DNA of 64,000 bases from Candidatus Limnocylindrales bacterium (GCA_035559535.1 DATMBG010000033.1:61573-125572), one strand, 5' to 3'; counted from the stretch's first letter, positions 4,281-63,950 are shown. Translations and numbers: made by a program. The notes: generated from the letters alone by a model not told the origin.

Positions 4281-6500
4281 ATGGTTACAGATCTAAATCC
4301 CATGTTTAATCCCAGCTCTGTGGCGATTATAGGAGCTTCCGATGATCCTCTGAAGATAGGATATCGGCCCGTCCAAAATTGTCTTAAATTCGGCTTTAAG
4401 GGGAAGCTTTTTCCCATTAATCCCAAATATACAACGGTCGCTGGAGTGCCCTGTTATCCCCATCTTAACGAAATCAAAGAGGAGATTGATCTGGTCGTCA
4501 TTTCGGTTCCGGTTAATCAGGTCCTGAAGGCTTTAGAAGACTGTATAAACAAAGGGGTCAAAGCCGTAGTAATTTACAGCTCGGGCTTCTCAGAGATAGG
4601 AGAGGCTGGAAAACGGATTCAGGATCAGATGCGAGAACTTATCCGGACCGGTGGTTTGAGAGTTTGCGGCCCGAATTGCCAGGGAATTGCAAACCTTTAC
4701 ACAGGTCTGAATGTATCCTTTTCTACATGTTTCCTTCGCTATGGGGCTAAACCGGGTCCTTTGGGATTGGTTACCCAGAGTGGGATGGTAGGTGGCATTA
4801 TTTACCCCCTAGGACTTGAACATAACCTGGGGTTCAGTTATTGGATCAGTATTGGCAATGAAGTCGATTTGGATTTTGCCGATTGTGTAACCTATCTGGC
4901 TCAGGATGAAAATACCCGGGTCATCCTGGGTTATCTGGAAAATATGGGAGATGGTCGTAAATTACAGAGAGCCGTCCAGATAGCCCATCAACAAGAAAAA
5001 CCTGTCATAATAGTTTTAGCCGGAAGGACTGAGGTAGGGGCCCGGGCAGCTCTTTCCCATACAGGGTCTCTGGCCGGAGATGCCCGACTCACAGATGCAG
5101 TTTTGAAACAGATGGGAATTCTGCGGGTTTACGACCTTCAAGAACTTATGGATAGTGCCAACTTATTGGCCCGATCCATAGGAGGGAAAAGTAAGGCAGC
5201 AAGGTTGACAGATTGTAATTCTGCTTTAATCCCCCACCACCCCAAGTCTCATCGACCAAAACTTCCGAAGGGGAGACGGGTTGGGATTATAACGAACTCC
5301 GGAGGAACCGGTGTAATGATGGCAGATACCTGTGTGGATTTGGGATTGGAAGTACCCTCCTTCTCGGAAGATCTCCAAGAGAAAATTGCCCAGATTATTC
5401 CGGTTTTCGGATCTCCCCGTAACCCTATCGATATGTCTTTAGCGATGCTGGATCAACCGGAAGTACTTCCTCGCATTGTCCGACTCCTAGATCAAGAAGG
5501 ACCCGTAGACACCATCGTTGCTTTCCTGGGTATGATGGGGGGAACTTACCCCCTGGATAAAATTGTACCGGATCTCATCCACCTATCCCAAACAACCACA
5601 AAACCTTTCCTTGTGACCTGGATGGTCGGAGTTCAAGATGCCTTCCAAAATTTGCAAACCGCCGGGGTTATAATTTATAGAGATCCTACCCAATGCCTTA
5701 AAAGCCTGGCCACTCTGGTCCGGTATGTAGACCGGATTCAAGAATCTAAAGGAAATGGAGGAAAATGGGAGGGTAAGAGAACAGAAACCCGTCCAGCTAC
5801 TCCCCTACCTGCTCATCTGCCTGCCCATTCATCGATTTTGGATGAACATACCAGCAAGAATTTACTGGCCGGTTATGGAATTCCATCGTGCCGGGAGAAA
5901 TTAACTTCTTCGGAAGAAGAAGCGGTGCTTGCAGCTCAAGAGCTGGGTTATCCCGTGGTGCTCAAGGTTTGCTCCGCTGAGATTCCTCATAAAAGCGAAC
6001 TTGGTCTGGTAAAGATCTCTCTTTCCAACCCCGATGAGGTAAGAAAGGCTTATCGAAATCTCATGGTTACCCTGGAACAGAAAGCTCCCCGGGCTAAACT
6101 TCAGGGAATCCTGGTTCAAGAAATGGTTACAGAAGGTATCGAAATGGCTTTAGGTATCGTCCAAGATCCCCGCTTCGGTCCGGTCATCTTGTGTGGATTG
6201 GGTGGGATCTTCATGGAAATTCTTAAAGACGTCAGTTGGCGAATGGCCCCTGTAAGCCCTGCCCAGGCCAGATCTATGCTCCAGGAACTTCAAGGCTATC
6301 CCCTCCTCCTCGGAGCTCGGGGGAGGCCTCCGGCCGATCTGGAAGCCCTCATAGATACTATGGTTCGATTATCTCAACTGGCTATGGAATTATCAGAAGA
6401 AGTTAAAGAAATTGATCTAAATCCCCTCATGGTTTTAAACCGGGGAAAAGGCGTAAAAGCCGTAGATGCTTTGATGATCCTTAAACCTCATCAGATCTGA
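4281..6500 (+). CDS. NDP-forming acyl-CoA synthetase (acetyl-CoA synthetase ADP-forming type), fused alpha/beta domains
   Basis: 739 aa. N-terminal CoA-binding domain (VAIIGASDDPLKIGY), succinyl-CoA-ligase-like flavodoxin domain (GIITNSGGTGVMMADTC) and C-terminal ATP-grasp domain (GYPVVLKV...HKSELGLVK). Confidence 0.75.
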   Translation: MVTDLNPMFNPSSVAIIGASDDPLKIGYRPVQNCLKFGFKGKLFPINPKYTTVAGVPCYPHLNEIKEEIDLVVISVPVNQVLKALEDCINKGVKAVVIYSSGFSEIGEAGKRIQDQMRELIRTGGLRVCGPNCQGIANLYTGLNVSFSTCFLRYGAKPGPLGLVTQSGMVGGIIYPLGLEHNLGFSYWISIGNEVDLDFADCVTYLAQDENTRVILGYLENMGDGRKLQRAVQIAHQQEKPVIIVLAGRTEVGARAALSHTGSLAGDARLTDAVLKQMGILRVYDLQELMDSANLLARSIGGKSKAARLTDCNSALIPHHPKSHRPKLPKGRRVGIITNSGGTGVMMADTCVDLGLEVPSFSEDLQEKIAQIIPVFGSPRNPIDMSLAMLDQPEVLPRIVRLLDQEGPVDTIVAFLGMMGGTYPLDKIVPDLIHLSQTTTKPFLVTWMVGVQDAFQNLQTAGVIIYRDPTQCLKSLATLVRYVDRIQESKGNGGKWEGKRTETRPATPLPAHLPAHSSILDEHTSKNLLAGYGIPSCREKLTSSEEEAVLAAQELGYPVVLKVCSAEIPHKSELGLVKISLSNPDEVRKAYRNLMVTLEQKAPRAKLQGILVQEMVTEGIEMALGIVQDPRFGPVILCGLGGIFMEILKDVSWRMAPVSPAQARSMLQELQGYPLLLGARGRPPADLEALIDTMVRLSQLAMELSEEVKEIDLNPLMVLNRGKGVKAVDALMILKPHQI

Positions 6501-8472: not shown

Positions 8473-10161
8473 TTGCTCAAAATTTTGACTACCTGCCGGG
8501 TCTCTTATATCTGGCCGGTCCTTGCGCTTGCGGCTTTTGGCCTACTCCTTCATGAGTATACTTACAAAGATTTTCTCATGGATGATGCCTTTATTTCCTT
8601 TCGTTATGCGGAGAATTTGGTAACCGGGCATGGACTTGTTTTCAATCGAATCGGAGATCCCGTAGAAGGATATACCAATTTTCTTTGGACACTCCTTTTC
8701 GCCGGAGTTCTTTACCTAAAGCTGGATCCGGTCATCACCGCAAAAGTCTTTGGGAGTTTATTGAGTCTCCTGGGATTAGGGCTTACTTATCGAATAGCCC
8801 GTACCATTAATGGAAAAACGGGAGAATGGGAAGGTGGGGAAGTTGGAGAATTTGAGAATCGGAGAGAAGGGGAATCGGAGAAAGGAGGAATAGAAAATCT
8901 ATGGGCAGTTTGGCCTCTTCTCTTTCTTGCTACTTCAGGATCCTTTGCTGCCTGGGCCATGGGAGGTCTGGAGACCCACCTGGTTACGGCTTTGAATCTT
9001 CTGGCTCTACAAAGTTATTTCACGGCCCATTTTCTTACTTCCGCCATCTTTTTTACTCTGGCCTCCCTTACACGCCCTGACGCCATCCTTCTGTGGGGAG
9101 CTGTTTTCTTTATGCACCTGTTTGGCCGGGTGAAGGAGAGAAGGAAAGAAAAGGAGAAGGGAAGAATAACTTCTGATTATCTTTTCCTCCTCCTCCCTTT
9201 GGGAGGATTCAGCCTGTTTTGGATATGGCGCTGGCAGTATTACGGATCCTTGTTTCCCAATACCTTCTACATGAAAACAGGTGGTGGATGGCATCAAATA
9301 CTGGCAGGAGTTTTCTATCTACTGGATTATATCCTCTCCCAGGGTGGATTTTTTCCTTTCCTTCTTTTCTACTTTTTTAAATGGAATTATGACGCCTTTG
9401 ATCATCGGGTTATTCTATCTCAAATAGGCCTTTACACCACCTTTATTATCTTATCTGGAGGGGATTGGATGCCGCTTCATCGGTTCCTGGTTCCCCTGCT
9501 TCCCCTGCTGGCTATCTTAAACACCGCAGCCTTTAAAGGCATTTATAGGAGGCTGATTCTTTTCCTGGAAAAGATGAATCCTCCATCCAAACCGGGAAAT
9601 TGGGAAAATGGAAGAGCGAAACATGATTTATTTTCCTGTTCTTTTACTCCCTCGTCCTCCCGCTCTGCTGCCCTCCTGCTCTTTATCCTGATGGGGTTCT
9701 CCTTGATATTTCCTTTGTTGGAAACTTTAACCGAGCATCCCAGGATAATGGAAGATAGTAAGGGAGTTCAGGCCCTCGTAGAGTTTGGAAAGTGGTTGGG
9801 GAAGCAGGTTTCACCTTTTTCGCTGATAGCCGTTAACCCGGTCGGGGCTATACCCTATTATTCCCGGTTAAACACTTTAGATATGACCGGATTAACCGAT
9901 TCCCATATTGCCCATCTTAAAATGGGAGGTTTACACCAAAAATACGATAGTGCTTATATTCTTAGCTATCATCCTGATTTTATTATTCTGATAGGGCGAT
10001 ATGATCCTGAAACCCGGGTCTACCAGGCTACCTGGGTGGGGGAGGAGGATTTATTTCATAATCCAGAATTTCAGTCTGAGTACCAACCGATCCATCAACC
10101 GGTTTTCAAATATAAAAAGGAGTATAGAATCGTCCTTTTTCAGCGCAAACCCTCGGGGTAG
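8473..10161 (+). CDS. GT-C-type polytopic membrane glycosyltransferase-like protein
   Basis: 562 aa, many TM helices. Acidic first-loop motif 'DDAFISFRYAENL' of the kind used by lipid-linked-sugar glycosyltransferases. TTG start in track; N-terminus uncertain. Carries an octamer-periodic purine-rich insert at 8815-8895. Confidence 0.5.
   Translation: MLKILTTCRVSYIWPVLALAAFGLLLHEYTYKDFLMDDAFISFRYAENLVTGHGLVFNRIGDPVEGYTNFLWTLLFAGVLYLKLDPVITAKVFGSLLSLLGLGLTYRIARTINGKTGEWEGGEVGEFENRREGESEKGGIENLWAVWPLLFLATSGSFAAWAMGGLETHLVTALNLLALQSYFTAHFLTSAIFFTLASLTRPDAILLWGAVFFMHLFGRVKERRKEKEKGRITSDYLFLLLPLGGFSLFWIWRWQYYGSLFPNTFYMKTGGGWHQILAGVFYLLDYILSQGGFFPFLLFYFFKWNYDAFDHRVILSQIGLYTTFIILSGGDWMPLHRFLVPLLPLLAILNTAAFKGIYRRLILFLEKMNPPSKPGNWENGRAKHDLFSCSFTPSSSRSAALLLFILMGFSLIFPLLETLTEHPRIMEDSKGVQALVEFGKWLGKQVSPFSLIAVNPVGAIPYYSRLNTLDMTGLTDSHIAHLKMGGLHQKYDSAYILSYHPDFIILIGRYDPETRVYQATWVGEEDLFHNPEFQSEYQPIHQPVFKYKKEYRIVLFQRKPSG
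8815..8895 (+). repeat. Octamer-periodic purine-rich repeat inside a CDS, translated as a G/E/W-rich loop
   Basis: ggagaatg/ggaaggtg/gggaagtt/ggagaatt/tgagaatc/ggagagaa/ggggaatc/ggagaaag read directly; encodes GEWEGGEVGEFENRREGESEKGG. Confidence 0.6.
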
Positions 10162-12015: not shown

Positions 12016-12864
12016 ATGAGCCCCAGACAGATGAAATCTTTAAAACAATTTTTCGGGTCTCACTTACCCTTAATTCCCTTTTTAATCTTTGCCCTTTTCC
12101 CTTTTTACTTCATGCTTGTAACCTCTTTTAAGGATGATGGAGAGCTTTACGATCTGAACTCCATTCCATTCTGGATATACAAGGGGGTGGTTTTGAGCCA
12201 TTATCGATTTCTTTTAGCCGAGACTCCCTTCTTAACCTGGATCAGTAACAGTCTAACGGCCAGTGTACTGAGTACTATTATCTCGGTTATTATCAGCATC
12301 CTAGCTGCTTACAGCCTGGCCAGATTAAATTTTCGGGGAGCCCATAGTTTTGGGATTGCTATTTTTATTACCTACCTGGTTCCTCCGGCTCTATTATTTC
12401 TCCCACTCTCTCAGGTCGTTCATAAACTGGGACTCTCCGATTCCATCTGGGCCCTGATACTCACCTATCCCACCTTTCTGGTTCCCTTTTGTACCTGGTT
12501 ACTTTTAGGGTATTTTAAAACCGTTCCTCGGGAAATAGAGGAATGTGCCATGGTAGACGGAGCAACCCGGTTCCAAACTTTGACAAAAATAGTTTTACCG
12601 GTAGCCACGCCGGGGATTATCTGCGCCACCCTGTTCTCGTTTACCCTTTCCTGGAATGAATTTTTGTATGCCCTTACCTTTATCTCTTCCACCGCCCAGA
12701 AAACGGCTACTGTGGGGATTACAGGAGATCTCATCCGGGGAGATATTTACTACTGGGGGTCTTTGATGGCCGGAGCCGTACTGGGCTCGGTACCTATTGT
12801 AATTGCCTATGTATTCTTCCTGGATTATTACGTCTCGGGCTTGACAGCAGGTGCCATTAAGTGA
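12016..12864 (+). CDS. ABC transporter permease (carbohydrate-type, MalG/UgpE-like)
   Basis: ATG start. EAA-loop region 'EECAMVDGATRFQTLTKIVLPVATPG'. Second permease of the pair. Confidence 0.8.
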   Translation: MSPRQMKSLKQFFGSHLPLIPFLIFALFPFYFMLVTSFKDDGELYDLNSIPFWIYKGVVLSHYRFLLAETPFLTWISNSLTASVLSTIISVIISILAAYSLARLNFRGAHSFGIAIFITYLVPPALLFLPLSQVVHKLGLSDSIWALILTYPTFLVPFCTWLLLGYFKTVPREIEECAMVDGATRFQTLTKIVLPVATPGIICATLFSFTLSWNEFLYALTFISSTAQKTATVGITGDLIRGDIYYWGSLMAGAVLGSVPIVIAYVFFLDYYVSGLTAGAIK

Positions 12865-12876
12865 TATTAAGTAGTA

Positions 12877-12941
12877 AGTACTGAGTGCTGAGTCCTGAGT
12901 GCTGAGTAAATACTAAAACCCAGTGTTCAGCACTCAGTACT
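12877..12941 (+). terminator. Long stem-loop (15-bp perfect arms) immediately after the permease operon
   Basis: Arms AGTACTGAGTGCTGA (12877-12891) and TCAGCACTCAGTACT (12927-12941), followed by a T-rich tract (ttattattg). Sits between the permease stop (12864) and the hslO start (12955). Confidence 0.45.
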
Positions 12942-12954
12942 TATTATTGAAAAT

Positions 12955-19629: not shown

Positions 19630-20100
19630 TTATTGGGATAACCTCTTCAACCAATAAGATACCCTGGGGTCTTTTCCGCCTAATCGAAGATAAATATCAT
19701 AGTGATTTTTGGCCAGCGTTGCATTCTTAAGATTTTTATCGTATAAAACTCCTAGTTTATAGTGAGCTTCCATAAGATTCGGATCAATTTGAATGGCCTT
19801 TTCATAATTTTCTGCAGCAAGTTGATAATTACCTTGATGCACCTCTAAATCACCCAAACGCAAATAAGCGGTGGCATTCTTAGGATCTATCTGGATCGCC
19901 TCCAGGTAGTAAGTTCGGGCTTGATCTTTATCCGTTATGTAGAGTAGATCTCCTTGCTTAACCAGATCTCGAGATTTATCTCCATTGGCCGGAAGGATCC
20001 TGATTTCTGAAGTAGAGGAGCCAGGTGGTTCCAGCTTGCGTTTGACCTTGATTTTGTCTTCCCCGGTAATAACAATTTCCGGAAGCTTCAAACCCGGAGG
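19630..20100 (-). CDS. TPR-repeat protein
   Basis: Three or more TPR units ('AYLRLGDLEVHQGNYQLAAENYEKAIQIDPN', 'AHYKLGVLYDKNLKNATLAKNHYDIYLRL'). The track ORF runs to 20310 but its N-terminal part would translate through two REP-like palindromes, so the start is uncertain and 20100 is approximate. Confidence 0.5.
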   Translation of the reverse strand, partial: PPGLKLPEIVITGEDKIKVKRKLEPPGSSTSEIRILPANGDKSRDLVKQGDLLYITDKDQARTYYLEAIQIDPKNATAYLRLGDLEVHQGNYQLAAENYEKAIQIDPNLMEAHYKLGVLYDKNLKNATLAKNHYDIYLRLGGKDPRVSYWLKRLSQ

Positions 20101-20126
20101 TGCAGCAGGCTCAGCGGCAGAACTAA

Positions 20127-20154
20127 GTACGGGCACACGGCCGTGTGCCCCTAC
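20127..20154. repeat. 28-bp REP-like palindrome (GTACGGGCACACGGCCGTGTGCCCCTAC)
   Basis: Read directly; arms carry compensatory changes relative to other copies. Confidence 0.85.
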
Positions 20155-20264
20155 TCCAAGAAAAGAAAGCAAAATTAAAATAAAGGCGACAATCTGGCTT
20201 GATTGAAGGAACTTAAAGCCAGCCCTCCAATCGACGTAAGGTTTATTTTCAGAGATTAATCTTG

Positions 20265-20292
20265 GTACGGGCACACGGCCGTGTGCCCGTAC
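20265..20292. repeat. 28-bp REP-like palindrome (GTACGGGCACACGGCCGTGTGCCCGTAC)
   Basis: Read directly; 15 bp 3' of the stop of the 20307-22154 (-) gene. Confidence 0.85.
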
Positions 20293-20306
20293 TTGTTTTA
20301 GTCCGT

Positions 20307-22154
20307 TCATTTACTCCTCCATACCTCAAAGATCCTCTCCAGACCAGCCCCTCCAAACAGAGTATTTGAGATGGTTAAGGTAGTCCCTCTGGGATCTTTG
20401 AGGGTATATTCATCGTAGAAACGACCTTTTTTAACAGAAATTTCAGTATCCGGACCAAATTCGAGGGAATGCCTGTAAGTAACTCCCTGAAGTTGAGCAG
20501 TAGCAACGGCCAGCAGCCGTCGGGTTGTTACAACAATCCAGAAATAGGCATCCCGTGCACGGGTTTTATCTACATTCCTGAACCGAAACCGGGTAGAAGT
20601 TTCCCGGATGGCCAGAATCCCCTCCGTTGGATCTAATTCCCTAAAAATATATCGGAGAATTTCAAAGGGAGGGGTCGAGATCAGATCGTGCTTGGGAAGT
20701 TTGGCTTTCAATTTATCGATTAGGTGCTTTTCTCCTTCTTTTTTCATACCCAGAAGGTCGCAAAGATTATAATAATAAGCCTCATCTTCCTTTGTAAAGG
20801 GTATCTGCCAAAGTAAAACATCCAGTACTTCCAGGAGGGCCTGCTGTTTAAAGATGGGTACATCTAAAACTTTAACCAATTCCTTGAGGTCTGTGGGACG
20901 TTCCCGCTCGACCAAAATATCTGCAAACTCTGCTTCTGAGAAAGGGACCAAAGGATATGCCAAAGCCCGAGCCCAGATATACTCCTTTAAAGATTCTGAC
21001 CATTTGTTACACGCTGTGGCTGCCTGAACCATCAGTTTCAAGATGGCAGCTTCCCGTTTCTTGTTAATTTGCTGAACACTTACCACATCCAACTCTCCAG
21101 AGGGCAACGCTTTTTTCTCTAATTCATTTCGATATTTTGAAGAAACGCCCAACCGTTCTTCCAGATTACGCAGCCGCTCCATTTTTTTTGTAAGATTCAT
21201 CTCATCGGCTTGCGCAACTTTCTCTACCTGTCTGAGGAGTCGGGCTTTATCTCCTTTCTCAGAAACAACGGTTAAATCATAAGAGGCCGGCTTCTTAGCC
21301 AACAGGGAACGTAAAAGGCTTACTTTTAGTGAATCGTTCAATTCGGTATTCTTTAGAATGTAGGCCAAGAGGGTCTCGTACTCCTGGGAAGTCACCAAAC
21401 CATCCGCTACCGCCATGTTAATCATTTCACCTGCAATGCTATACTCGATGATAGCAGACTTAGGTTTTACCCCCCTTCGACTATAAAGCAGGATGGCTTC
21501 TTCCCCTACAACGGTCATGATCATGGATAAAAAATAACGAACAATGCTTTCCTGACTAACCGTGATAAGGACCTGTCGTCCCCAGTACCAAGGATTAGAA
21601 TAGTTGTAGGCGGCCCATAGGGCCTTCCCAATATCATAAAGATATTTATGCTTTTTGAAAAATTTAAAAGCGCTATGGCTGGTAACTTGATTGTAAAAGT
21701 TTTTATATTTGAGAATATTCTCGATATTGAAATCTTTGATTTTATTAAACGGAAAGGTCTCCAGATTCGCCCGAATACGTTCGCTGATCCGATAATTAAG
21801 TTCTGCAAGATCATGAAGAGAAGCTTGAAACTCGGGTCGATCTTTCAGGGGATAATAGAGCCTGGCAATCTCTCGAACAAGTTCATAGGCAAGTTGATAA
21901 ATCATGCGTGGATTAATGTCCGTACTCACAACCACATTCCACCAAATCTTGCTTCGATACTCTTTAATTAACTCATAAGCCTTGAGATCGGTCTCGGTTG
22001 GATTATCTACTTGGATGATAGGTACTTCTTGAAGTTCTTCTACATCTTTCTTTACCTCTTCAATAATCTGTTTTTTTTGCTTTTCGCGTACAAAGAGTAA
22101 AACGAACACAAGAAGGCTTAATAAGCTTATGAGAAAAATGGTTACCCAATCCAT
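20307..22154 (-). CDS. Hypothetical membrane-anchored protein (single N-terminal TM, large soluble domain)
   Basis: 615 aa, ATG start, N-terminal TM 'IFLISLLSLLVFVLLF'. No recognised motif. Immediately downstream of the large GT-C/TPR gene on the same strand. Confidence 0.55.
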   Translation of the reverse strand: MDWVTIFLISLLSLLVFVLLFVREKQKKQIIEEVKKDVEELQEVPIIQVDNPTETDLKAYELIKEYRSKIWWNVVVSTDINPRMIYQLAYELVREIARLYYPLKDRPEFQASLHDLAELNYRISERIRANLETFPFNKIKDFNIENILKYKNFYNQVTSHSAFKFFKKHKYLYDIGKALWAAYNYSNPWYWGRQVLITVSQESIVRYFLSMIMTVVGEEAILLYSRRGVKPKSAIIEYSIAGEMINMAVADGLVTSQEYETLLAYILKNTELNDSLKVSLLRSLLAKKPASYDLTVVSEKGDKARLLRQVEKVAQADEMNLTKKMERLRNLEERLGVSSKYRNELEKKALPSGELDVVSVQQINKKREAAILKLMVQAATACNKWSESLKEYIWARALAYPLVPFSEAEFADILVERERPTDLKELVKVLDVPIFKQQALLEVLDVLLWQIPFTKEDEAYYYNLCDLLGMKKEGEKHLIDKLKAKLPKHDLISTPPFEILRYIFRELDPTEGILAIRETSTRFRFRNVDKTRARDAYFWIVVTTRRLLAVATAQLQGVTYRHSLEFGPDTEISVKKGRFYDEYTLKDPRGTTLTISNTLFGGAGLERIFEVWRSK

Positions 22155-22163
22155 TCCTGGGAG

Positions 22164-22225
22164 CCAGGAGTCCGGGGTCAGGGGTCAGAAACCAGAAGCT
22201 CTGGCCTCTGACCCCGGACTCCTGG
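22164..22225 (-). promoter_or_regulatory. Long GC-rich stem-loop (18-bp perfect arms) between two co-directional genes, abutting the downstream start codon
   Basis: Arms CCAGGAGTCCGGGGTCAG (22164-22181) and CTGACCCCGGACTCCTGG (22208-22225). Lies after the stop of the 22241-25735 gene and ends 9 nt before the ATG at 22154. Confidence 0.4.
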
Positions 22226-22240
22226 CTTCTGACTGAGGAC

Positions 22241-31735: not shown

Positions 31736-34330
31736 ATGAAAAGGAAAGTTTATGCTTTACAGGTCAGTAAAATGTTAACCTCCCTTTTTTGGGTTCTAAC
31801 AGCCGGAGCCTCCATAGGATTTTATGTCTGGATGCGGGTTAATCCGCTTGTTTTTCTAGATCAAGGAAACCTCCAGACCTATTTATATTTCAACTTCTTC
31901 CATCTTAAACTTCTCTGGTATTTAGCAGGGTGCATGTCAGGGTTAACCGTTTTTTGGCTCTTATATGCCCGGACTCTGAACCTGGCAACCGGTATAGATT
32001 TCCCCATCTGTCTGTATGCAGACGCCAAAACTTACCTGCCTTGCTATTTACTTCTTCTGAACTGGCTTAGCTTCCGCTACGTCCTTTATAAACCCGGTTA
32101 CCTTCTTCCCACCATCATTCTTATTTTTATCTTAATCCGCAAATATCGATTCTTAAGGATGATCCTCGCTCCTTTAACTTTATTTCGCTTATTCCCTGTT
32201 TCCAGGTCTCCACACTTCCGCCGGGGGATTATACCTGTTCTTATTTTTATCCTTTCTACCGGATTTTACCTGAGCCTGTCCACAAAACTTCTCTCGCCCC
32301 TCCATGTTCTGGTTGGAGATGAGCCCTCATATCTTATGATTACCGACAGCCTTTCCAAAGATGGAGATGTAAGGTTAAACAATAATTATCGAGAAAAGGC
32401 CTATTTACGTTTTTTTCCAGGTGAATATCCTCGATTTGGTAACATCGGTAAAGATGGTGGGATCTATCCTAGACACGGCATCGGACTTCCCCTTCTGCTC
32501 GTTCCGTTTTATCGCTTAGGAGATCGATTCGATCATATGGTTTTTTTTCCCAGAGCCTGTATGAATTTACTCACGGCTCTCCTGGTTACAAATTTTTATT
32601 TGCTGGCCTATGAGATGACCCGGAATCTTCCGGCTTCCTTGCTAACCACCTTTATTTTTGGGTTTACCACGCCGGTCCTTTTTTACTCTTACCAGATCTA
32701 TCCGGAAGTCCCTGCCGGATTGATTTTGTTATATGCTTTCCGAAAATGGCGCTTGTTTTATAGAAGACCCTTGCTATACCCGCTTTGCATAGGCGGGGCC
32801 ATTTCTCTTCTACCCTGGTTTGGAGTGAAGTACCTTATTTTATCCCTGGTACTGTTTCTTTTAGCCGGGTTCAGTTTGATACGATATCGGACTCATTTTT
32901 CTTATTTATCTGTTCTCCTTTTTTTATTTCCTATTATCCTGTCGGGGGTACTTCATGCCTGGTTTACCTATTCCATGTACAAAACCATATCTCCAACCGC
33001 CATGTATGGACAGGCCTCTCCGATTCCAGGACAAAAGCCGGGGTCTTATTCAGTCCTGGGGGATTTAAAATTTAAATTAAAACGAGGTCTTATGGGAATT
33101 CCTGGGGTTTTCCTGGATCAAAGGATCGGTCTTCTTTTTCATAGCCCCCTTTACTTCTTTTCGCTGGCCGGTATTCTAGCCCTATGGAGAAAGAAAGCCT
33201 ATCGACCTCAGATGTTCGCTTTACTTTTTATCTTTCTGAGCTACATCTTTTTTTATACCTCCCAACCGACAGCAGGATGGGGCGGATACAGTGTCATGAA
33301 TCGCCCGGTCATAGCCGTTATCTGGTGTTTAGGTATTTTGATGCTCTTTGGTTTGAAATCCTTCCGGGGGCCCCTGGCAACAGCCCTTCGAAACGGTTTC
33401 TTCGTTTTTAGTTTTCTTTTGGTTGGCCTCTATTTAAAAGAGCCTTTACTGCTTTATCACCAGATGGCTTATCGTTATCAAGAACTTCGAAGTAACCTCC
33501 TCTATACCTATAGTAGTGCCTTTCTAGATCTGACTTCCCTGTTTCCTGCCATGATGGGTACAGATAAAAATCCTAAAGTAACCCTCTTCTGGGCAGGTGT
33601 TACGCTAACTTTGCTGGCACTTTGTTACTATGAATCGAAAAAAAGAGTATGGGAGTATGGGAGTGTGGGAGTGTGGGAGTATGGAGGCAGGGAGGTAGGG
33701 AGGTATGGAAGTATAAGAAATAGAACTCCCATACCCCCATACCCCCATACCCCCATCCTCCTACTCTTGCCCATAGTGTTAGGCTTTCTTTTCCTGATGG
33801 GAGGTTGGATTTCAGTTAAGGAGATTCTCCCCAAGACGCAAAATGCTACCGGCTATGAAATGTTTTTCACTTTACCCTGGACGGGAAAGGGTCTGATAGG
33901 TAAATATTATGATAATGAAGCCTGGGAAGGAGTTCCTCGGGTTATTCGACGAGACCCCTCACTCGACTTTTCTTTTATACAACATCTGGATATGTTCCGG
34001 GTCAAGGTAGGAAATTTTCCTCTCCCGGTGAATCTTTCTTCCTTTTCTGTGGACTGGTCTGGATATCTGATAGTCCCTTCGTCAGGAAATTATATCTTCC
34101 AGGTAATCACTTCCCCACGGGCTTTCTTTTATCTGTCTATAGATGGGGATCCCATGGTTGTAGATGGGAAAACTCCCAGGGAATTGACCCAGGGGGATCA
34201 CTCCATTCGGATTCGGTTGAAGGAACTACATCCTTCCAATTCCCAACTCATCCTGTATTGGATACGACCCGACGGTCAAAAAGAAATTATTCCGGCGGAA
34301 GCTTTCCGGCCTTATCAAGGAATAAACTAA
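31736..34330 (+). CDS. GT-C-type membrane glycosyltransferase (ArnT/PMT-like) with C-terminal PA14 domain
   Basis: 864 aa, ATG start. Many TM helices with first-loop motif 'GDEPSYLMITDSL' paralogous to the 1164-aa protein. C-terminal PA14-like region 'GKYYDNEAWEGVP...VDWSGYLIVPSSGNYIFQVITSPRAFFYLSIDGDPMVVDG'. Contains the repeat at 33645-33760. Confidence 0.6.
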   Translation: MKRKVYALQVSKMLTSLFWVLTAGASIGFYVWMRVNPLVFLDQGNLQTYLYFNFFHLKLLWYLAGCMSGLTVFWLLYARTLNLATGIDFPICLYADAKTYLPCYLLLLNWLSFRYVLYKPGYLLPTIILIFILIRKYRFLRMILAPLTLFRLFPVSRSPHFRRGIIPVLIFILSTGFYLSLSTKLLSPLHVLVGDEPSYLMITDSLSKDGDVRLNNNYREKAYLRFFPGEYPRFGNIGKDGGIYPRHGIGLPLLLVPFYRLGDRFDHMVFFPRACMNLLTALLVTNFYLLAYEMTRNLPASLLTTFIFGFTTPVLFYSYQIYPEVPAGLILLYAFRKWRLFYRRPLLYPLCIGGAISLLPWFGVKYLILSLVLFLLAGFSLIRYRTHFSYLSVLLFLFPIILSGVLHAWFTYSMYKTISPTAMYGQASPIPGQKPGSYSVLGDLKFKLKRGLMGIPGVFLDQRIGLLFHSPLYFFSLAGILALWRKKAYRPQMFALLFIFLSYIFFYTSQPTAGWGGYSVMNRPVIAVIWCLGILMLFGLKSFRGPLATALRNGFFVFSFLLVGLYLKEPLLLYHQMAYRYQELRSNLLYTYSSAFLDLTSLFPAMMGTDKNPKVTLFWAGVTLTLLALCYYESKKRVWEYGSVGVWEYGGREVGRYGSIRNRTPIPPYPHTPILLLLPIVLGFLFLMGGWISVKEILPKTQNATGYEMFFTLPWTGKGLIGKYYDNEAWEGVPRVIRRDPSLDFSFIQHLDMFRVKVGNFPLPVNLSSFSVDWSGYLIVPSSGNYIFQVITSPRAFFYLSIDGDPMVVDGKTPRELTQGDHSIRIRLKELHPSNSQLILYWIRPDGQKEIIPAEAFRPYQGIN
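33645..33760 (+). repeat. Imperfect octamer tandem repeat (about 9 x AGTRTGGG-like) followed by inverted CCCATACC units, inside the CDS
   Basis: gagtatgggagtatgggagtgtgggagtgtgggagtatggaggcagggaggtagggaggtatgg ... cccatacccccatacccccatacccccatcc read directly; translated in frame as VWEYGSVGVWEYGGREVGRYGS...PIPPYPHTP. Confidence 0.7.
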
Positions 34331-35514
34331 GAAAAGAAATTCTGGCGCTTCTTCAAATTATCCAGGGTCTTGATGATAAAGCTCATCATGACGAGCTGGA
34401 CTCCCGTCAGGAATAGAGTAGCTCCGGTGAGGATATAGGACCAGTGAACATGAATATGCTGGGTAGTTACATACTCATAAATGGTATTTTTATTCAAAAC
34501 GATACTACTTAAAATGGAAAGCCAGCCGATCAGACCTATTTTTTTCATGATCGTTGGTTTAAAAATATATCGGCTCCAGAAACTACGCTGATGAATCTCT
34601 TTTCGGTGCATGATGGACAAAATATAGTTCGAAAAGGCTCCAAAGGTCATGGTGTTGATACCTGTTATAAACAGAACCATAATGGTAAAGAGCCGATAAA
34701 TTTCCCAATCCTCTACTTCCCGCAATTTGATATAGTAAGTCACCGGCATAATTCCCAACAATACCCCTATGAAAATCATCAGTAATCCCATCATTCCGTA
34801 AAACTTGAGCGGGTTATAAAGGTTGGCGGTATGGAGGATGGTTGAGAGGAATCGGAGTCCATCTTGGATAACATGAAGTTTAGATTTTCCTATCCGTTCC
34901 TTGTATTCAATAGGAACTTCTACGACTTTCATTCCTTCATGCAAGGCATGGGTACTCATGGCAGGAGTTAAATCGAGCCCATCGGGTAAAGGATATAATC
35001 GGGTTAAAATAGATCGTTTGAAGACCCGCATCCCACTGGCTGAGTCTGTTATTTTATGCTCGACGATCCAGCTCAAAAGTCTGGCAAAAAACCTGTTACC
35101 GATCTGTCGAATGAAAGGCATACCGGTTTTCTTTTCAATCATTCGGGAGCCGATGACCATATCGGCGTTTGTTTCTCTTAAGACCCTGCAAAGGTCTAAG
35201 AAGGCCCGGGCGGGGTAAGTCCCATCGGCATCCAGGAATCCCATATACTCCCCTCGTGCTTTATCAAACCCAGTTTTCAGAGCAGATCCGTATCCTAAAT
35301 TTTTCCTATGATGGATAAGGACCACATCTGGATAACCCTGAACAATTTCACCTGTTCGATCCTGGGAGCCGTCGTTTACAATGATAATTTCTACCTCGGA
35401 GATGCCAATTTTTGTCTCTAGAATTTCCTTTTTAACCGCCAGAACTTCCAGAATCGTGGCTCCTATAGAATTTTCTTCATTATACGCTGGAATCACTATA
35501 GAAAGTGTGGGCAT
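34327..35514 (-). CDS. GT2-family polyprenyl-phosphate glycosyltransferase (DPM1/ArnC-like) with C-terminal TM helices
   Basis: ATG at 35514 preceded by GGGAGGAGG. 'LSIVIPAYNEE', 'VNDGSQDRT', 'FLDADGTYP' GT-A motifs. About 100-aa hydrophobic C-terminal segment. Confidence 0.8.
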   Translation of the reverse strand: MPTLSIVIPAYNEENSIGATILEVLAVKKEILETKIGISEVEIIIVNDGSQDRTGEIVQGYPDVVLIHHRKNLGYGSALKTGFDKARGEYMGFLDADGTYPARAFLDLCRVLRETNADMVIGSRMIEKKTGMPFIRQIGNRFFARLLSWIVEHKITDSASGMRVFKRSILTRLYPLPDGLDLTPAMSTHALHEGMKVVEVPIEYKERIGKSKLHVIQDGLRFLSTILHTANLYNPLKFYGMMGLLMIFIGVLLGIMPVTYYIKLREVEDWEIYRLFTIMVLFITGINTMTFGAFSNYILSIMHRKEIHQRSFWSRYIFKPTIMKKIGLIGWLSILSSIVLNKNTIYEYVTTQHIHVHWSYILTGATLFLTGVQLVMMSFIIKTLDNLKKRQNFFS

Positions 35515-44350: not shown

Positions 44351-44562
44351 AAAATCCTATTCCAGGGCCCAGAAGAGTAAGGTTTGATCTAGACATAACC
44401 AAAGGGAAGTTGCCGCTTCCCCGATGATTTTTCATACCAATTTGTATTTCATACCGTAGAAGCCGGTTTGAAACCGATCCCTCCCTAAGGCCTGTATAGG
44501 GACCCCATAAAATACAAATTGGGACTGTTACTTTGTAAAGTTAAATTTGAATAACTATTCTA

Positions 44563-44674
44563 CCCTCACCCCTAACCCCCTCTCCCGAAGCTTCGGGAGA
44601 GGGGTTGAGAAGTTGACCTGGAGATTTGTCGGCTCCCTTCTCCCACGCTGTGGGAGAGGGGCCGGAGGTGAGGG
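44563..44674. repeat. Nested palindromic element: two tandem 26-27-bp hairpin units enclosed by an outer 8-bp inverted repeat
   Basis: Unit 1 CCCTCTCCCGAAGCTTCGGGAGAGGG (44578-44603). Unit 2 CCCTTCTCCCACGCTGTGGGAGAGGGG (44635-44661). Outer arms CCCTCACC (44563-44570) / GGTGAGGG (44667-44674). Confidence 0.6.
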
Positions 44675-45162
44675 CAGTGAATGACCCAAAATTAACCTTA
44701 CCAGGTACTCTTCACAAGATGAGCAGAGAAATAAACAGCAGGTAAGAAGGATAAGCCAGATCGCCTGTTTTTCCATTCAACCTCTTAAACAGGTTATCAC
44801 TTCGCTCTTTCGAGTCCTACCCAACATAGGGAAACTTGAGTACTCGATGATTACTTTTTAGTCAAGTGTTTTTTTACAAAAAAAATTTAGAGTCAAAATG
44901 GCACTTATTTTTTAAGAACTTAAAATTTTTCTGCCAATATGATCTTATTTCTAAATTTGTTTAAGATTAACCTAAAATTCTATAAGTTTGGTGAATGAGA
45001 AGGAATCGGCTGAAGAAGAGAAAGAGCAAGTTATTTTCTTTGACATTCTTCCTGAGAAGTTTTAAGATCCTCTCAGATTTAAATGACCCGCTTTTAAGGA
45101 TAAAATTCATCCAGGTATGTTGGCAAAACTTCCAACATCGGGTTAATTTAAGGAGGATTGCA

Positions 45163-59861: not shown

Positions 59862-62800
59862 TTATCTTCTCTTTTTGAAAATTTGATCCAATATACCTTT
59901 AGAAATATCTTCCAGTACCTCCTCAGGTTTTTTCTGAGCAGGCAGTTTCTCCTGGGATTCCAAAGGAGGTTGTGGTTCCGGAGAAGGCTGCTGCTCTGAG
60001 GAGGTCTGCGACGCTACATCCTGTTCCGTGTTTTTTTCTTTCTTTTTAAAAATTTTATCCAATCCCAATTGGATTCCTTTCTGAAGGGCTATATTTGCTG
60101 CAAATTTAACTACACTGTTTTGAATACCGGCCAGATTAAATTCCGGCTCAAAAAGTGTTCCTTCAATAGGAATAGGGAAAGGAATCGTTACTTTTCCATC
60201 ACGTTCCGGAAAATATTTAACTAATTCTGGATAGTATTTAAAATCCTTGAAAAAACTGATCCGGCCCGTCAAATCCAGGGCCGTATTATTCAAACCCAGA
60301 TTTCCTGTAATCTCTAAATCCATGTTAAGATTTTGGGTGGGATCTCTTACCTGGATCATCAGATCCCCGGTACCGGCCTGTCCATCCCGAATGTTAAAGT
60401 GACCTTTAAACAGGGAAAATTCTGTATCCGGAGGAGCTTTCTTAAATTGCTCACTCAAGGCCAGGAATTCCTTAGCCTTTCCAATCTGACCTATCCACTC
60501 AAAGAGTGGAGCCAGCTCGTGAAAGATACTAAAAGCCGTGAATTTTCCATTTCGTATCTCCAGATCGCCACTTCCTGTAAGGGTTCTACTCAGTACCTGG
60601 GTGTCGAATCCTTTTCCCTGCAACTTCATGTTAACAAAAAGCAATCCGTAGATGACGTGTTTCAAGGAGGTTTTTTCGGCAAAAAGTTTACGGGCATTAA
60701 CTTGGGTCAGCCGGGTAGTAACTTCGTAAACCGCTGGGGTAGTGTTTAAATCTATTACCGCAGCTCCCTGATGGGTTCCGTCATAAAAATTGAAGACCAG
60801 GTTATTCAAGCGAATGACTTGGTCGGTCATCTGAGCCTGGGTAGTCAGTCGGGAGAAATCGAATTCTTTGGCTGTCCCCTGGTCTACAGTAATCGTTCCT
60901 TGGGCCTGTATTTTCCTGAGTAAGTCTTCCAGGGACCCGGACCCTGGAATTTTCTGCACAGGCTGAGGAGTTCGGGACCCGGTGGGTTTTTCTTCCTTCA
61001 TCTTAGGAAGGGGAGTTTCTTCTCCAGGGGCAGGTTTACGGGACCTGGAGGGTTTAGAGTCTTGGACAAGCTGAATCGGTTCCGGGGCCTGGTCTGCAAA
61101 TGGGGTAGCAGCAACAAAAAAAATGGGTAATTCACCCCTTTCAGAGTCTCTATACTCCCAGGTTTCCGGATTCTTCTTCCAGGAGGCTTTCTTTTCCAGA
61201 TCTTTTCCTTCCATCCATTCATCCAGATTCAGTTTAGAAGCATGGAGATCAAATTGAACCTTAGGAGCGTTCAGATCCCTGATATTTAGATTACCTGTAA
61301 AAACAGAGCTTCCCAACTGGCCTGTTAAATCTTTTACGGTTATTTCTCTTCCTGCTAAGACGGCAGAAGCCGAAAGATTTTCGATGGATTTGGGTAAATT
61401 GGGAAGGGCCAGCCGGACCTTTTTAAAATTAATGGTCCCGTTAATTCCCCGACCTTCTGCAATATCTTCCCATTTCCCCTTCAGGCTCACGTCCAGGTCG
61501 ATTTTTCCCTGATCATCGGGAGTCTCAGACTGGAGAATCCAGGGGTTAAAAGCAAAGGCATTGGATCGCAGGTGAAGATCCCATAACGACGAAGCATAAG
61601 ACTTCACTCCAGTTGGGTTAAAACCGGTTATAAAGCCTTTTATATCCAGAATCAAATCATTAATGTTGAGCCTAAGGGCTTCTATTTCAAATCGTTCCTT
61701 TTTGGCGATGACATCAAACTCCAATCGCCCGGGAATGCCGCTGGCTTTTTTAAACAGGATCCCATAGCTGGCTTCTCCTTTGTCTAAATTGACGGAACCT
61801 GTTAGACGAAGATTAGAGGGAGGACCTGCGGTTTTAACCTGGAGTCTGGTCGGACCTGTTAAATCAAGACCTTTAGGTAAAGAGGATTTGACCCGGGGTA
61901 ATTTCTGCAAAAGTTTTTGTATATCGAACTCATCGGTTACAATATCTAAATTAAGCTGAGGTTCGCGTTGGGGTGAAGCTCCGTTATAGGTTCTTGCTAT
62001 GATTCCTTTAACCCTCAACTGGAGATCCTCCAACAGAAGGGTCAAGTTTTTAAGGGTCACATCTCCTTTACTCAGGCCGGCTTCTAAAGCCAGATCTGAT
62101 TTAACCCCTTCCGGTTTTACAAAAAAATCCTTATAACGGATCTGGTTTTTTGTTAAATCTACGCCGCTTTTTATTTCCAGGGCCTGGGGAGACCCCTCCA
62201 CATGCACCTGGAGCTGGCCGGGGCCTGTTAAAATTAGATCGGCCAGGGACACGGTGGGAAGCAACTTATTTTGAAATTCCACCAGGTCAAAGGGGTTTGT
62301 ACTGAGGTCCAGGTTAAGTTTTGGATTTTGGAGATTTTCAATGGAACCATCTATACGTAGGGCTAAGTTCCCCAAATGAAGGGAAGAGTTGGAAAGGTTC
62401 AGTGAAGAAAGCCCAGTACGGTCATCCTTTTTGATCTCTACATTAAAATCCAGATTACCCGGGACTCCCACCTGTTTTTGGAAAACCTGACCATACTGAA
62501 GATAGCCTTTATCCAGATTGATATTTCCGACCAGGGTCAAATTTTCCGGTTTCCCTTTAGGTTTTATACTAAAGCTGGTCTTACCCGACAAAATGACTTC
62601 CTCAGGCAAGAAGCCAGAAGCTACGGGAATGGCTTTTAAAAGGGTAGCAACCTCAAAGGTATTACTATCGATTTGTAAATTTAAGTCCGGGTTCCCAGGA
62701 CTTCCGATAGTTCCGGTAGCTTTCAAAACCATGTCTTCCAGGGAGAAGGTGATATTGTCGATATTGAATTGGCCTGCGTCTAATCCTGCTTCAACCTTCA

Positions 62801-63950
62801 GATCTGATTTTATTTTAGCAGGCTTCGAGAAGAGATCTTTGTAACGAATCCCGTTATCGGTCAAGTCCAGATCTGTCATTACCTGGAGTTTATTTACGGG
62901 ACCTTCCACCTGGAGTTTCAACTCCGTCGGACCCGTCAAAGTTACATCGGTGGGAAGCAAAGACGTACTGGCCGGTGTCAGTTGTTGTTGGAGTTCATCG
63001 AGTTTAAATTTATTGGTTACTACCTCCAGATGAATGGAGGGAGATAGGGAATCAGATTTTGAACCGATTCCCGTAACCGAACCGGTAGCGTTGAGTACCA
63101 AAGGACCTAACCGAAGGGTCAGATTCTCCAGGTTGAACTCATCTTCTCTACGCTTTGAACTAAATGCTAAATTCGCGGGGACGTCAGGAGCTTTATGAAG
63201 GAGAGACTTATATCTCAGTTCGCTCTGGTCAAAGTTAACCGAACCCTCGGCCAGTAAGTCTTTGAGCTTTCCTTTAAGGGAGATCGTCAAATTCCCGGGC
63301 CCTGAGATTTTTATTCCCTCTACACGATCCGGACTTGAGGAGGCTTTAGAAGCAGATTTAGAATCAATCCCTGCCGTACGGGGGAAGAGTTCCATAAGTT
63401 TCTCGGGTAAAAAGGACTGGGAGGTTATTTTCAAATCTACAGCGGGCTCACCGGTTTTTAAATCTCCTACGGTTCCTGCCACGACCATTTGCACGTCGTT
63501 GATATTCACCGCCAGATTGGAAAGGGTTAAAGTATCTCCTCCAAAGTGACCTTCAAAGACGATCTGCCCCGGCACTCCTCGGGGTTTAGAAAAGATATTC
63601 TTGTATTGGATCTGACTTTCCTTGAGGTCAATAGTCCCTGTCAAGGTAAGATCCTGGAGAGAGCCTTGGGGTTGAAGGGCAATACTTGCGATCCCCTCCA
63701 GGTGAAGCGGAGGATGGCCATCGGTTCTTAATAAGGTAGGACGTGCTTCGGGGGGAAAGAGCGCAAAGAGTTTATTCCAGTCCAGATTTTCGAGTTTAAT
63801 AGACAGGTTTATTTGCGGTTTTGTCTTTACATTCTCAACCTCACCGGATATATCCATCATGATGGCTGCAGTTGTGACATTGGAATGAACAACCTTTAAA
63901 TCTCCTTCCCGAAGGTTTATCGACAGGGCCCCATCAACGGCTGCGTTCAC
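59862..63950 (-). CDS. Giant AsmA/TamB-like envelope protein; N-terminus may extend beyond the window
   Basis: 1362 or more aa, internally repetitive beta-rich segments ('LTGPTELKLQVEGPVNKL', 'LTGPGQLQVHVEGSPQAL', 'LTGPTRLQVKTAGPPSNL'). Synteny with lpxA. Stop overlaps the start of the phosphatase gene. Confidence 0.5.
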   Translation of the reverse strand: MNAAVDGALSINLREGDLKVVHSNVTTAAIMMDISGEVENVKTKPQINLSIKLENLDWNKLFALFPPEARPTLLRTDGHPPLHLEGIASIALQPQGSLQDLTLTGTIDLKESQIQYKNIFSKPRGVPGQIVFEGHFGGDTLTLSNLAVNINDVQMVVAGTVGDLKTGEPAVDLKITSQSFLPEKLMELFPRTAGIDSKSASKASSSPDRVEGIKISGPGNLTISLKGKLKDLLAEGSVNFDQSELRYKSLLHKAPDVPANLAFSSKRREDEFNLENLTLRLGPLVLNATGSVTGIGSKSDSLSPSIHLEVVTNKFKLDELQQQLTPASTSLLPTDVTLTGPTELKLQVEGPVNKLQVMTDLDLTDNGIRYKDLFSKPAKIKSDLKVEAGLDAGQFNIDNITFSLEDMVLKATGTIGSPGNPDLNLQIDSNTFEVATLLKAIPVASGFLPEEVILSGKTSFSIKPKGKPENLTLVGNINLDKGYLQYGQVFQKQVGVPGNLDFNVEIKKDDRTGLSSLNLSNSSLHLGNLALRIDGSIENLQNPKLNLDLSTNPFDLVEFQNKLLPTVSLADLILTGPGQLQVHVEGSPQALEIKSGVDLTKNQIRYKDFFVKPEGVKSDLALEAGLSKGDVTLKNLTLLLEDLQLRVKGIIARTYNGASPQREPQLNLDIVTDEFDIQKLLQKLPRVKSSLPKGLDLTGPTRLQVKTAGPPSNLRLTGSVNLDKGEASYGILFKKASGIPGRLEFDVIAKKERFEIEALRLNINDLILDIKGFITGFNPTGVKSYASSLWDLHLRSNAFAFNPWILQSETPDDQGKIDLDVSLKGKWEDIAEGRGINGTINFKKVRLALPNLPKSIENLSASAVLAGREITVKDLTGQLGSSVFTGNLNIRDLNAPKVQFDLHASKLNLDEWMEGKDLEKKASWKKNPETWEYRDSERGELPIFFVAATPFADQAPEPIQLVQDSKPSRSRKPAPGEETPLPKMKEEKPTGSRTPQPVQKIPGSGSLEDLLRKIQAQGTITVDQGTAKEFDFSRLTTQAQMTDQVIRLNNLVFNFYDGTHQGAAVIDLNTTPAVYEVTTRLTQVNARKLFAEKTSLKHVIYGLLFVNMKLQGKGFDTQVLSRTLTGSGDLEIRNGKFTAFSIFHELAPLFEWIGQIGKAKEFLALSEQFKKAPPDTEFSLFKGHFNIRDGQAGTGDLMIQVRDPTQNLNMDLEITGNLGLNNTALDLTGRISFFKDFKYYPELVKYFPERDGKVTIPFPIPIEGTLFEPEFNLAGIQNSVVKFAANIALQKGIQLGLDKIFKKKEKNTEQDVASQTSSEQQPSPEPQPPLESQEKLPAQKKPEEVLEDISKGILDQIFKKRR

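Follow-up and report, generated by a model that had tools for sequence, protein, structure and literature searches.

The closest described relatives of the repeat reported here are the GGGAATC and GGGGAYT arrays of Xanthomonas and Nostoc, which are dispersed and 89-93% intergenic, lie on average 28 nucleotides (nt) past the upstream open reading frame (ORF) and occur at 70-75 per genome as convergent inverted pairs capable of forming stem-loops (Rehm et al. 2015, PMC4692102). Close species differ in the length and sequence of the arrays but retain them at the same sites. They form quadruplexes in vitro, no function was found for them and phase variation was judged unlikely; intragenic arrays are rare (7-11%) and mostly overlap genes only in part (PMC4692102). 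Here we analyse a 64,000-nt stretch of DNA from Candidatus Limnocylindrales bacterium (GCA_035559535.1, DATMBG010000033.1:61573-125572; the window), in which a (GGGRGTRT)n octamer array and its inverted copy are translated inside a membrane protein gene.

Like the Xanthomonas and Nostoc arrays, the octamers are 7-8-nt tandem units with a tract of at least three G, dispersed, mostly intergenic behind a stop codon and found as convergent inverted pairs, with variable length and sequence at a kept site among close relatives. The octamers differ in the unit, which is 8 nt (GGGRGTRT) and not 7, and in their hosts, which are uncultured lineages known from metagenome-assembled genomes (MAGs); the unit itself occurs in more than 10 phyla among the matches listed. 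The window copy is also intragenic, in frame and translated, and the quadruplex is here a sequence motif only. On the simplest account, the element would be one of the G-rich 7-8-nt arrays already known to come with inverted partners, and would extend the kind seen in Xanthomonas and Nostoc to an 8-nt unit in many uncultured lineages.

A short unit shared across distant phyla is also known from the TAACTGA heptamer arrays (MacGregor 2015, PMC4679880), and long prokaryotic repeats with 5-11-nt units were surveyed by Mrazek et al. 2007, as summarised in the same paper, which places in-ORF arrays at the periphery of proteins or protein domains (PMC4679880). As far as that summary goes, the octamers resemble these repeats in the sporadic spread of identical short units over distant phyla, the mostly intergenic setting and the occasional in-ORF array. 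TAACTGA, however, has stops in all forward frames and stands upstream of starts, whereas the octamer is open in all frames and stands behind stops. The octamer is also strongly G-arm-first, with 47 pairs against 3 among the matches listed.

The classical case of palindromes inserted in frame in protein genes is said to be that of the Rickettsia palindromic elements (RPEs; Ogata et al. 2000). RPEs consist of unique sequence, follow a conserved consensus and are clearly present in some orthologues and absent from others. The window element is similar in being a palindrome in the ~100-150-nt range whose translation adds a peptide to a tolerant region of a protein, with other copies scattered in the genome. 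Unlike RPEs, its family shares the 8-nt unit only and shows no clean empty site, and the data are accounted for by local expansion no less well than by insertion. In contingency loci, the tracts are long and perfect and mostly close to the 5' end of the gene, and strains carry on or off alleles. The octamer array shares with them the in-ORF position, a unit that is not a multiple of 3, a gene of surface-glycan type and a product that is truncated by a one-unit change; it differs in being imperfect in the window and 3'-proximal, with all known alleles 'on'. The cyanobacterial STRR heptamer repeats are short tandem units in intergenic arrays and hairpins. The octamers form similar intergenic arrays and hairpins, and Cyanobacteria are among the genomes found with the octamer probe, but the two kinds differ in the length and sequence of the unit, and the window does not come from a cyanobacterial lineage.

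Our preferred reading, to which we give a probability of roughly 60%, is that the window copy is a tolerated, translated G-rich simple-sequence hairpin that undergoes slippage under selection to keep the frame.

The octamer hairpin and its host gene

The element spans positions 33643-33768 (~126 nt), is palindromic and is read in frame as KKRVWEYGSVGVWEYGGREVGRYGSIRNRTPIPPYPHTPI, also given as KKR-VWEYGSVGVWEYGGREVGRYGSIRNRTPIPPYPHTPI-LLLLPIVLGFLFLMGGW. Its left arm (33645-33714, plus strand) consists of ~9 imperfect G-rich octamers, recovered by Tandem Repeats Finder, repeat search and translation. Tandem Repeats Finder reports 8.6 copies of period 8 with 85% matches at 33646-33714, and a cleaner core of 5.0 copies with 93% matches at 33645-33684. 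The units stand in the order GAGTATGG twice, GAGTGTGG twice, GAGTATGG, AGGCAGGG, AGGTAGGG, AGGTATGG and AAGTAT, the unit types also including AGGYAGGG. Units of the types GGGAGTAT and GGGAGTGT each carry a run of at least three G and follow one another head-to-tail with a period of 8. The left arm translates as VWEYGSVGVWEYGGREVGRYGS.

A spacer at the hairpin tip (AAGAAATAGA, 33715-33724, plus strand) separates the left arm from its inverted copy, and the sequence GTATAAGAAATAG, spanning the left-arm end and the spacer, holds TAA and TAG in the two unused frames. The right arm (33725-33768, plus strand; Tandem Repeats Finder and inverted pairs) reads ACT(CCCATACC)x3 CCCATCCTCCTACTCTT and translates as TPIPPYPHTPILLL. 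Its array of CCCATACC (33728-33756) has 3.6 copies with 100% matches, so that up to 3.6 identical units are adjacent in the right arm against at most 2 in the left. The right-arm unit is the exact complement of GGGTATGG, the left-arm unit of the orthologue L001. In the repeat search, the inverted arms pair over 43 nt at 33670-33712 and 33725-33767, 12 nt apart and 77% complementary. A second register joins 33645-33680 to 33725-33760 over 36 nt with 83% complementarity. An earlier note on this DNA had described about nine 8-nt units followed by their inverted copy, with both arms translated in frame; the Tandem Repeats Finder and inverted-pair searches bear out the arrangement, and both arms are read in the ORF at 31736-34330 on the plus strand. 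A two-unit probe gives 9 matches in the 64-kb window against 0.67 expected, a number reached in 0 of 100 shuffles, and finds no second copy of the GGGRGTRT-type unit elsewhere in the window.

The host gene (31736-34330, plus strand) encodes a polytopic membrane protein of 864 amino acids (aa) whose core has the GT-C fold and is followed by a last membrane helix and, at the C-terminus, a PA14 domain. PA14 alone is detected by Pfam (PF07691; 34010-34300, plus strand, aa 759-855; E 1.9e-10, 41.2 bits against a cut-off of 24), and a sequence profile search of the PDB likewise returns PA14 domains alone, including those of anthrax protective antigen and Vip4. The core was assigned from an AlphaFold2 model built on 22 homologues, in which pLDDT is 80-95 across most of aa ~160-640. 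Its top-ranking PDB structures by Foldseek are EmbA/B/C, ALG12, STT3, ArnT, ALG9, DPY19, PimE and AftB, with E 3e-5 to 1e-2, probability 0.98-1.00 and modest TM-scores (0.2-0.5). Since these are GT-C proteins, the earlier label 'GT-C/PA14' holds at the level of the fold. The motif G194-D195-E196-P197 is nearly invariant among the 22 homologues and would lie in a loop equivalent to the first outward-facing loop of GT-C enzymes, which carries an acidic motif. The host gene adjoins a GT2 glycosyltransferase gene.

The repeat encodes a linker of aa 637-674 (33644-33757, plus strand). It had been placed between the membrane domain and PA14; it is indeed a linker, but it forms the loop between the penultimate membrane helix (aa ~613-635, followed by ESKKR) and the last one (aa ~674-695). 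PA14 begins ~65 residues past the last helix and ~85 residues past the repeat peptide. The pLDDT falls below 50 at the repeat-encoded residues 639-680, and the modelled loop is probably disordered. Because of the flanking Lys/Arg residues and the expected outside location of PA14, the loop would be cytoplasmic. The odd composition of the loop, rich in Trp, Gly and Tyr and then in Pro, is explained as translated repeat DNA.

The RNA of the region is predicted to form a single long hairpin with bulges at regular intervals (-59.2 kcal/mol, z -3.6; for 33640-33770, -57.5 kcal/mol, z -4.4), and the DNA fold is weaker (-23.9 kcal/mol, z -2.6). The inverted arrangement thus folds better than shuffled sequence, in agreement with the long cruciform or hairpin suggested earlier. 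A regular-expression scan for four G3+ tracts with N1-7 loops finds a quadruplex motif of the canonical G3N5 form at 33651-33677 on the plus strand and a minus-strand motif at 33728-33754; these are 2 of the 6 canonical motifs in the window. As sequence motifs only, repeats of the units GGGAGTAT and GGGGGTAT are quadruplex candidates. A quadruplex as the dominant structure of the mRNA is rejected on predicted energies, the hairpin in the full transcript reaching -57.5 kcal/mol against -13.6 kcal/mol for the quadruplex (arm alone). The 64-kb window has no Rfam match at the gathering threshold and no match in a tRNA scan, and no terminator or promoter was found in a scan of 33000-34500.

The octamer family in other genomes

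The window copy is a member of a dispersed family. Scanning one genome per species with the pattern GGRGTRTGGGRGTRTGGGRGT yields at least 120 loci (L008-L127), against an arithmetic estimate of ~9 expected for uniform composition and at most ~26 for G+C-rich DNA. The record titles of the matches listed, to which the counts in this paragraph and the next two also refer, cover more than 10 phyla: Bacteroidota, Rhodothermales, Armatimonadota, Chloroflexota, Cyanobacteria, Planctomycetota, Verrucomicrobiota/Lentisphaerae, Acidobacteriota, Gemmatimonadota, Streptomyces and others are named. The 120 loci hold 144 arrays. A G-rich arm is followed by a C-rich partner in 47 of them (within 80 nt in 24), and the opposite order occurs 3 times. 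This G-first polarity is independent of the strand, and pairing does not require it.

At loci below 52% G+C, half of the arrays (31/62) start between -12 and +60 nt from the end of a same-strand ORF of at least 100 aa, and only 5/62 lie inside long ORFs. The window copy, within ORF 31736-34330, departs from this intergenic norm. Half of the arrays at the low-GC loci begin 0-3 nt past the stop codon, and in Bacteroidota the junction of stop codon and array reads TAAGAAAGTATGGGAG. The dispersed copies share the repeat unit alone; there is no conserved core, loop, flank or terminal sequence. The same loci also contain 99 unrelated period-7 arrays in ~0.9 Mb, and these genomes are therefore rich in simple-sequence repeats generally. 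None of the papers in the library searched contains the octamer strings.

Arrays as the ends of gene cassettes were considered and rejected as a general rule: 2 of 7 widely spaced pairs (L018 and L031) enclose an ORF of ~140-150 aa, and the others enclose ordinary genes or nothing. In these two loci (L018 2127-2629, L031 1189-1834), the G-rich and C-rich arrays flank an ORF that starts M..VKHF(K/R)ELRVY, which may resemble the 'four-helix-bundle / 23S rRNA intervening-sequence protein' family. The ORF in L018 stands between genes for a histidine kinase and a LytTR response regulator, with the C-rich array coding for its C-terminal tail.

The sister genome JAUQPW01 (GCA_030550175.1) carries the family at six or more loci. 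It holds the in-gene copy L001, a lone array 10 nt past a stop codon and upstream of the RNase P RNA (L011), and intergenic hairpins at L072, L100, L107 and L119. Three of the latter were folded (L072, L107 and L119) and are near-perfect, at -77 to -114 kcal/mol with z -8 to -13. The intergenic hairpins are thus stronger than the in-gene copies, which fold at -52 to -57.5 kcal/mol (z -2.6 to -5.4) and are degraded. At L119 (78-4880), the hairpin of -114 kcal/mol separates two tandem genes, each opening with a membrane helix and then GLEGKYYANP, a motif that looks like PA14 by eye only. The MAG of the window probably holds another copy as well, on a 46-kb contig, because a 47-aa ORF made of both repeat peptides (P0045, HWP46667.1) bears the same organism label as the window protein (HWP47655.1) and an accession number 988 away from it.

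Three units amount to 24 nt, and therefore every frame gives the same 8-residue periodic peptide, phase-shifted: the G-rich arm encodes (GSVGVWEY)n, the C-rich arm (PILPYSHT)n. The arrays contain no stops and are open in all three frames, so that read-through is easy to tolerate. An idealised two-arm peptide query retrieved short stand-alone ORFs only and missed the long proteins that carry in-frame copies. All 37 of its matches (P0026-P0062) are 'hypothetical proteins' of 44-105 aa, probably spurious ORFs called across intergenic hairpins and thus an annotation artefact of the repeat family. Besides producing such entries, the arrays may mislead domain-boundary and frameshift calls in MAG annotation.

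Reading the ORFs around the DNA matches revealed further translated copies. On the Armatimonadota chromosome OY970325.1, a hairpin lies in frame between the N6_Mtase (aa 27-245) and Methylase_S (aa 369-462) domains of one protein (L038 3695-4169), with an additional C-rich array inside the methylase domain, and a second in-frame copy stands upstream of an Acetyltransf_6 domain (L078 984-1047). The octamer family is thus readable as protein in at least three unrelated genes. It is conceivable, though doubtful, that (GGGRGTRT)n with its inverted copy is one type of element in more than 10 phyla, G-arm-first, natively abutting stop codons as a structure of the 3' end and repeatedly captured in frame as inter-helix or inter-domain linkers whose signature peptides are (GSVGVWEY)n and (PILPYSHT)n. 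If true, linker sequences in proteins outside Rickettsia would have an RPE-like source that has gone unrecognised. Should the hairpins act at the 3' ends of genes, the in-gene copies would serve as natural 'misplaced' controls.

Evolution of the repeat-encoded loop

The protein search returned HWP47655.1, in an NCBI MAG labelled Candidatus Limnocylindrales, as identical to the window protein, and orthologues with 89, 83, 64 and 60% identity. Cluster members add 3 database entries, 2 of them identical over the whole alignment. A metagenome scan for relatives found two distant loci: L006, a further orthologue (63%) on a metagenome contig, and L007, which is without the repeat region. Close relatives provide five distinct alleles from six database entries (P0001, P0023, P0002, P0003 and P0024/25), three of the alleles, P0023 and P0024 included, being known as protein sequence only. 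All are in frame, with length differences of 0, +6 or -6 nt; none is 8 nt.

The octamer hairpin occupies the same codon position in all three close groups, with differing unit sequences. In L001 (89%) the conserved flanking anchors are 336 nt apart, as in the window, and the left arm is (GGGTATGG)x5-6 (~5.75 perfect units) with a right arm of CCCTACTY. Window and L001 therefore have equal unit numbers despite ~9% DNA divergence; the total length is the same and the units are homogenised differently in each lineage, which indicates concerted evolution. L002 and L003 (83%), from independent assemblies (JGI and Logan) that agree base for base, are 6 nt shorter net than the window, and the P0023 protein (93% identical overall) is 2 aa longer.

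The loop is hypervariable. Between P0001 and P0023 the linker is 58% identical and the rest of the protein 94.5%, and between P0003 and P0024 the values are 83% and 97.9%; comparisons between alleles give 50-66% in the linker where the remaining protein is 84-94% identical. The loop diverges at 4-8 times the pace of the remaining sequence. At the DNA level, the window is 83.7% identical to L001 in the repeat region and 90.6% in the rest of the gene. Insertions and deletions among the alleles fall almost wholly within the linker and are multiples of 3 nt. As these alignments have it, the loop evolves through the turnover of units and through insertions and deletions in multiples of 3 nt. The 'slippage hotspot' of the earlier note stands on this evolutionary timescale.

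The orthologues with 60-64% identity are 22-25 aa shorter and without the G-rich arm. L006 has a C-rich octamer array at the same site, CTCCCATC in 3.6 copies, and L005 (60%) has CTTCCACG and CTTCCACA there, with no significant structure (z -0.5). Since both keep octamer-like remnants, no clean empty site is apparent. The 64% orthologue, L004, carries an independent array at 6349-6386, (GGGGAAAT)x4.8, translated as EWGSQRVGEIGKWGNGEMGNS in a different loop, which shows no hairpin on folding. Different loops of the same protein have therefore gained different G-rich octamer arrays in different lineages.

These observations suggest how the loop may be maintained. The window copy is one of the (GGGRGTRT)n arrays, which often bring their own inverted copy, making a long hairpin possible. 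The usual setting of such arrays is intergenic, at or just past a stop codon; here the array lies inside a gene and is translated. The loop between the last two membrane helices is presumed to be under little sequence constraint, and the array is tolerated as a consequence. Turnover of the array would proceed by replication slippage, probably also by template switching or conversion between the arms, and selection would remove all variants that break the frame. We infer this slippage or conversion mechanism from the comparisons above, and the repeat itself would have no dedicated function.

Several points weigh against a mere passenger. The position is old: the 63% orthologue L006 retains its C-rich array of CTCCCATC (x3.6), a purine-to-pyrimidine hairpin, if a weaker one (z -2.4), is still present in the 64% orthologue, and hairpin potential survives in three diverged orthologues though both arms have changed sequence. 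Having lasted so long, the structure or the Pro/His/Thr-rich peptide could be of use to the cell and not just tolerated. The octamer periodicity down to the 63% orthologues is the main point that a passenger does not fully explain. The allele sample consists of five distinct alleles, and the gene contexts in other genomes are raw ORFs. The control for unit specificity covered viral contigs, where the target unit has 17 matches and permuted units have 26, 18 and 12, with no enrichment; a unit-specific mechanism is therefore unsupported.

A trapped or inserted element is the next reading to consider. An intergenic hairpin could have been caught in the fusion of a GT-C gene with a 'membrane helix + PA14' gene downstream of it, or a pre-formed palindrome could have been inserted in frame, as with RPEs. 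The hairpin lies exactly at the boundary between modules, and among the matches listed the family arrays natively stand 0-3 nt past a stop codon, with a same-strand ORF ending just upstream of 31/62 low-GC arrays. At L119, a hairpin separates tandem genes with a helix and GLEGKYYANP (PA14-like by eye only), and in-frame copies are present in inter-domain linkers of other proteins. However, the orthologues down to 60% identity are all already fused, including those without the G-rich arm, and neither a split homologue nor a clean empty site was seen. Octamer-like traces of the right arm persist in both L006 and L005. The dispersed copies have the repeat unit alone in common and no conserved core, loop or termini, and no target-site duplication is evident in the flanks by eye. 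We consider capture or insertion unlikely.

The earlier note had proposed a phase-variation-like switch. In such a switch, slipped-strand mispairing would add or remove one unit and shift the frame reversibly and at high frequency, leaving a GT-C core without the last helix and PA14. The mechanics are correct. The unit is not a multiple of 3, and adding or deleting a single unit of the left or right arm in simulation leads to a stop at aa 656-691 (aa 656 or 659 for changes in the left arm), with loss of the last membrane helix and of the PA14 domain in each case. The hairpin tip has stops in both unused frames, and L001 has 5-6 perfect GGGTATGG units. Surface-glycan genes are often phase-variable in pathogens, and the host gene is of this type and adjoins a GT2 glycosyltransferase gene. 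The alleles speak against the switch: the proposed comparison of unit number among relatives gives five distinct alleles (six entries) that are all in frame and differ by 0, +6 or -6 nt only, the unit numbers of window and L001 are identical at ~9% DNA divergence, and no truncated ORF of high identity appeared in the protein search. The left array is imperfect (85% matches), and the tract starts at codon 637 of 864, 74% into the ORF and away from the 5' end and promoter. Elsewhere the family is mostly intergenic, beside genes of all kinds, and therefore not specific to a contingency gene. Rehm et al. came to a negative view of phase variation for the GGGAATC arrays as well (PMC4692102). A contingency switch is thus rather improbable, and an annotation of the host gene as a 'phase-variable glycosyltransferase' is unsupported.

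We give an equally small chance to a functional nucleic-acid structure in the ORF, such as an mRNA hairpin or G-quadruplex that pauses the ribosome or polymerase between the last two helices, or an internal point of mRNA processing or stability. Significant folding (z -2.6 to -5.4) is kept in three orthologues with differing arms, and a purine-rich tract followed by a pyrimidine-rich one is found here in all orthologues, but this order also follows from a peptide of Lys/Arg/Glu/Gly followed by Pro/Ser/Leu. The in-gene stems have one mismatch per unit and are far weaker than the intergenic copies, the pairing register between units is ambiguous, and L005 has a z of only -0.5. The scan of 33000-34500 shows no terminator-like site, and Rfam has no match in the window. 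While 2 of the 6 canonical quadruplex motifs of the 64 kb fall within the element, the hairpin at -57.5 kcal/mol far outweighs a quadruplex at -13.6 kcal/mol (arm alone).

A fold-back or chimeric join made during metagenome assembly can be dismissed: inverted tandem repeats are hard to assemble and the L100 hairpin contains a run of N, but the same architecture recurs at the same codon position in independent assemblies (the window and NCBI MAG, the JGI/ENA variant P0023, GCA_030550175.1 with L001, and L002 with L003), none of which has a broken reading frame or downstream domain.

Other repeats in the window

The gene at 8473-10161 had been noted for a related purine-rich octamer repeat. The array is real: Tandem Repeats Finder places it at 8822-8891 on the plus strand, with the units GGGAGAAT, GGGAAGGT, GGGGAAGT and so on, in frame in the ORF and translated as GEWEGGEVGEFENRREGESEKGG in a loop of a 562-aa polytopic membrane protein. 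It lacks an inverted partner, however, and does not fold significantly (z +0.9). The protein matches no Pfam family; by its N-terminus (DDAFISFRYAENL), we presume it to resemble the arabinofuranosyltransferase-like GT-C proteins.

Two intergenic hairpins are built from heptamers. The first (12864-12954, plus strand; RNA -41.8 kcal/mol, z -8.5) has tandem arms of AGTRCTG and CAGYACT, with the units AGTACTG and AGTGCTG and their complement, and lies between an ABC-transporter permease gene and hsp33. It has the same design of an array plus inverted array as the octamer element, with a different unit. The second (22162-22234, minus strand; RNA -55.5 kcal/mol, z -6.2) has arms of GGGGTCA type and lies between two minus-strand genes, for a bPH-domain protein and a TPR protein.

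Two near-perfect palindromes of 28-30 nt, GTACGGGCACACGGCCGTGTGCCCGTAC, are located 140 nt apart (20126-20155 and 20265-20292) near the start of the ORF at 19630-20310 and have a REP-like look. Short arrays of CGTACGCC and CGTACGGC at 14282 and 16740 may be related to them. Two adjacent G/C-rich hairpins, CCCCTCTCCCGAAGCTTCGGGAGAGGGG and CCCTTCTCCCACGCTGTGGGAGAGGGG, occupy 44560-44677 in a 640-nt intergenic region between divergent genes. An AsmA-family protein encoded at 59862-63950, together with an outer-membrane beta-barrel protein beside the orthologue in L004 (3884-4504), suggests a diderm organism, a hint at odds with the label Candidatus Limnocylindrales (Chloroflexota) of the MAG.

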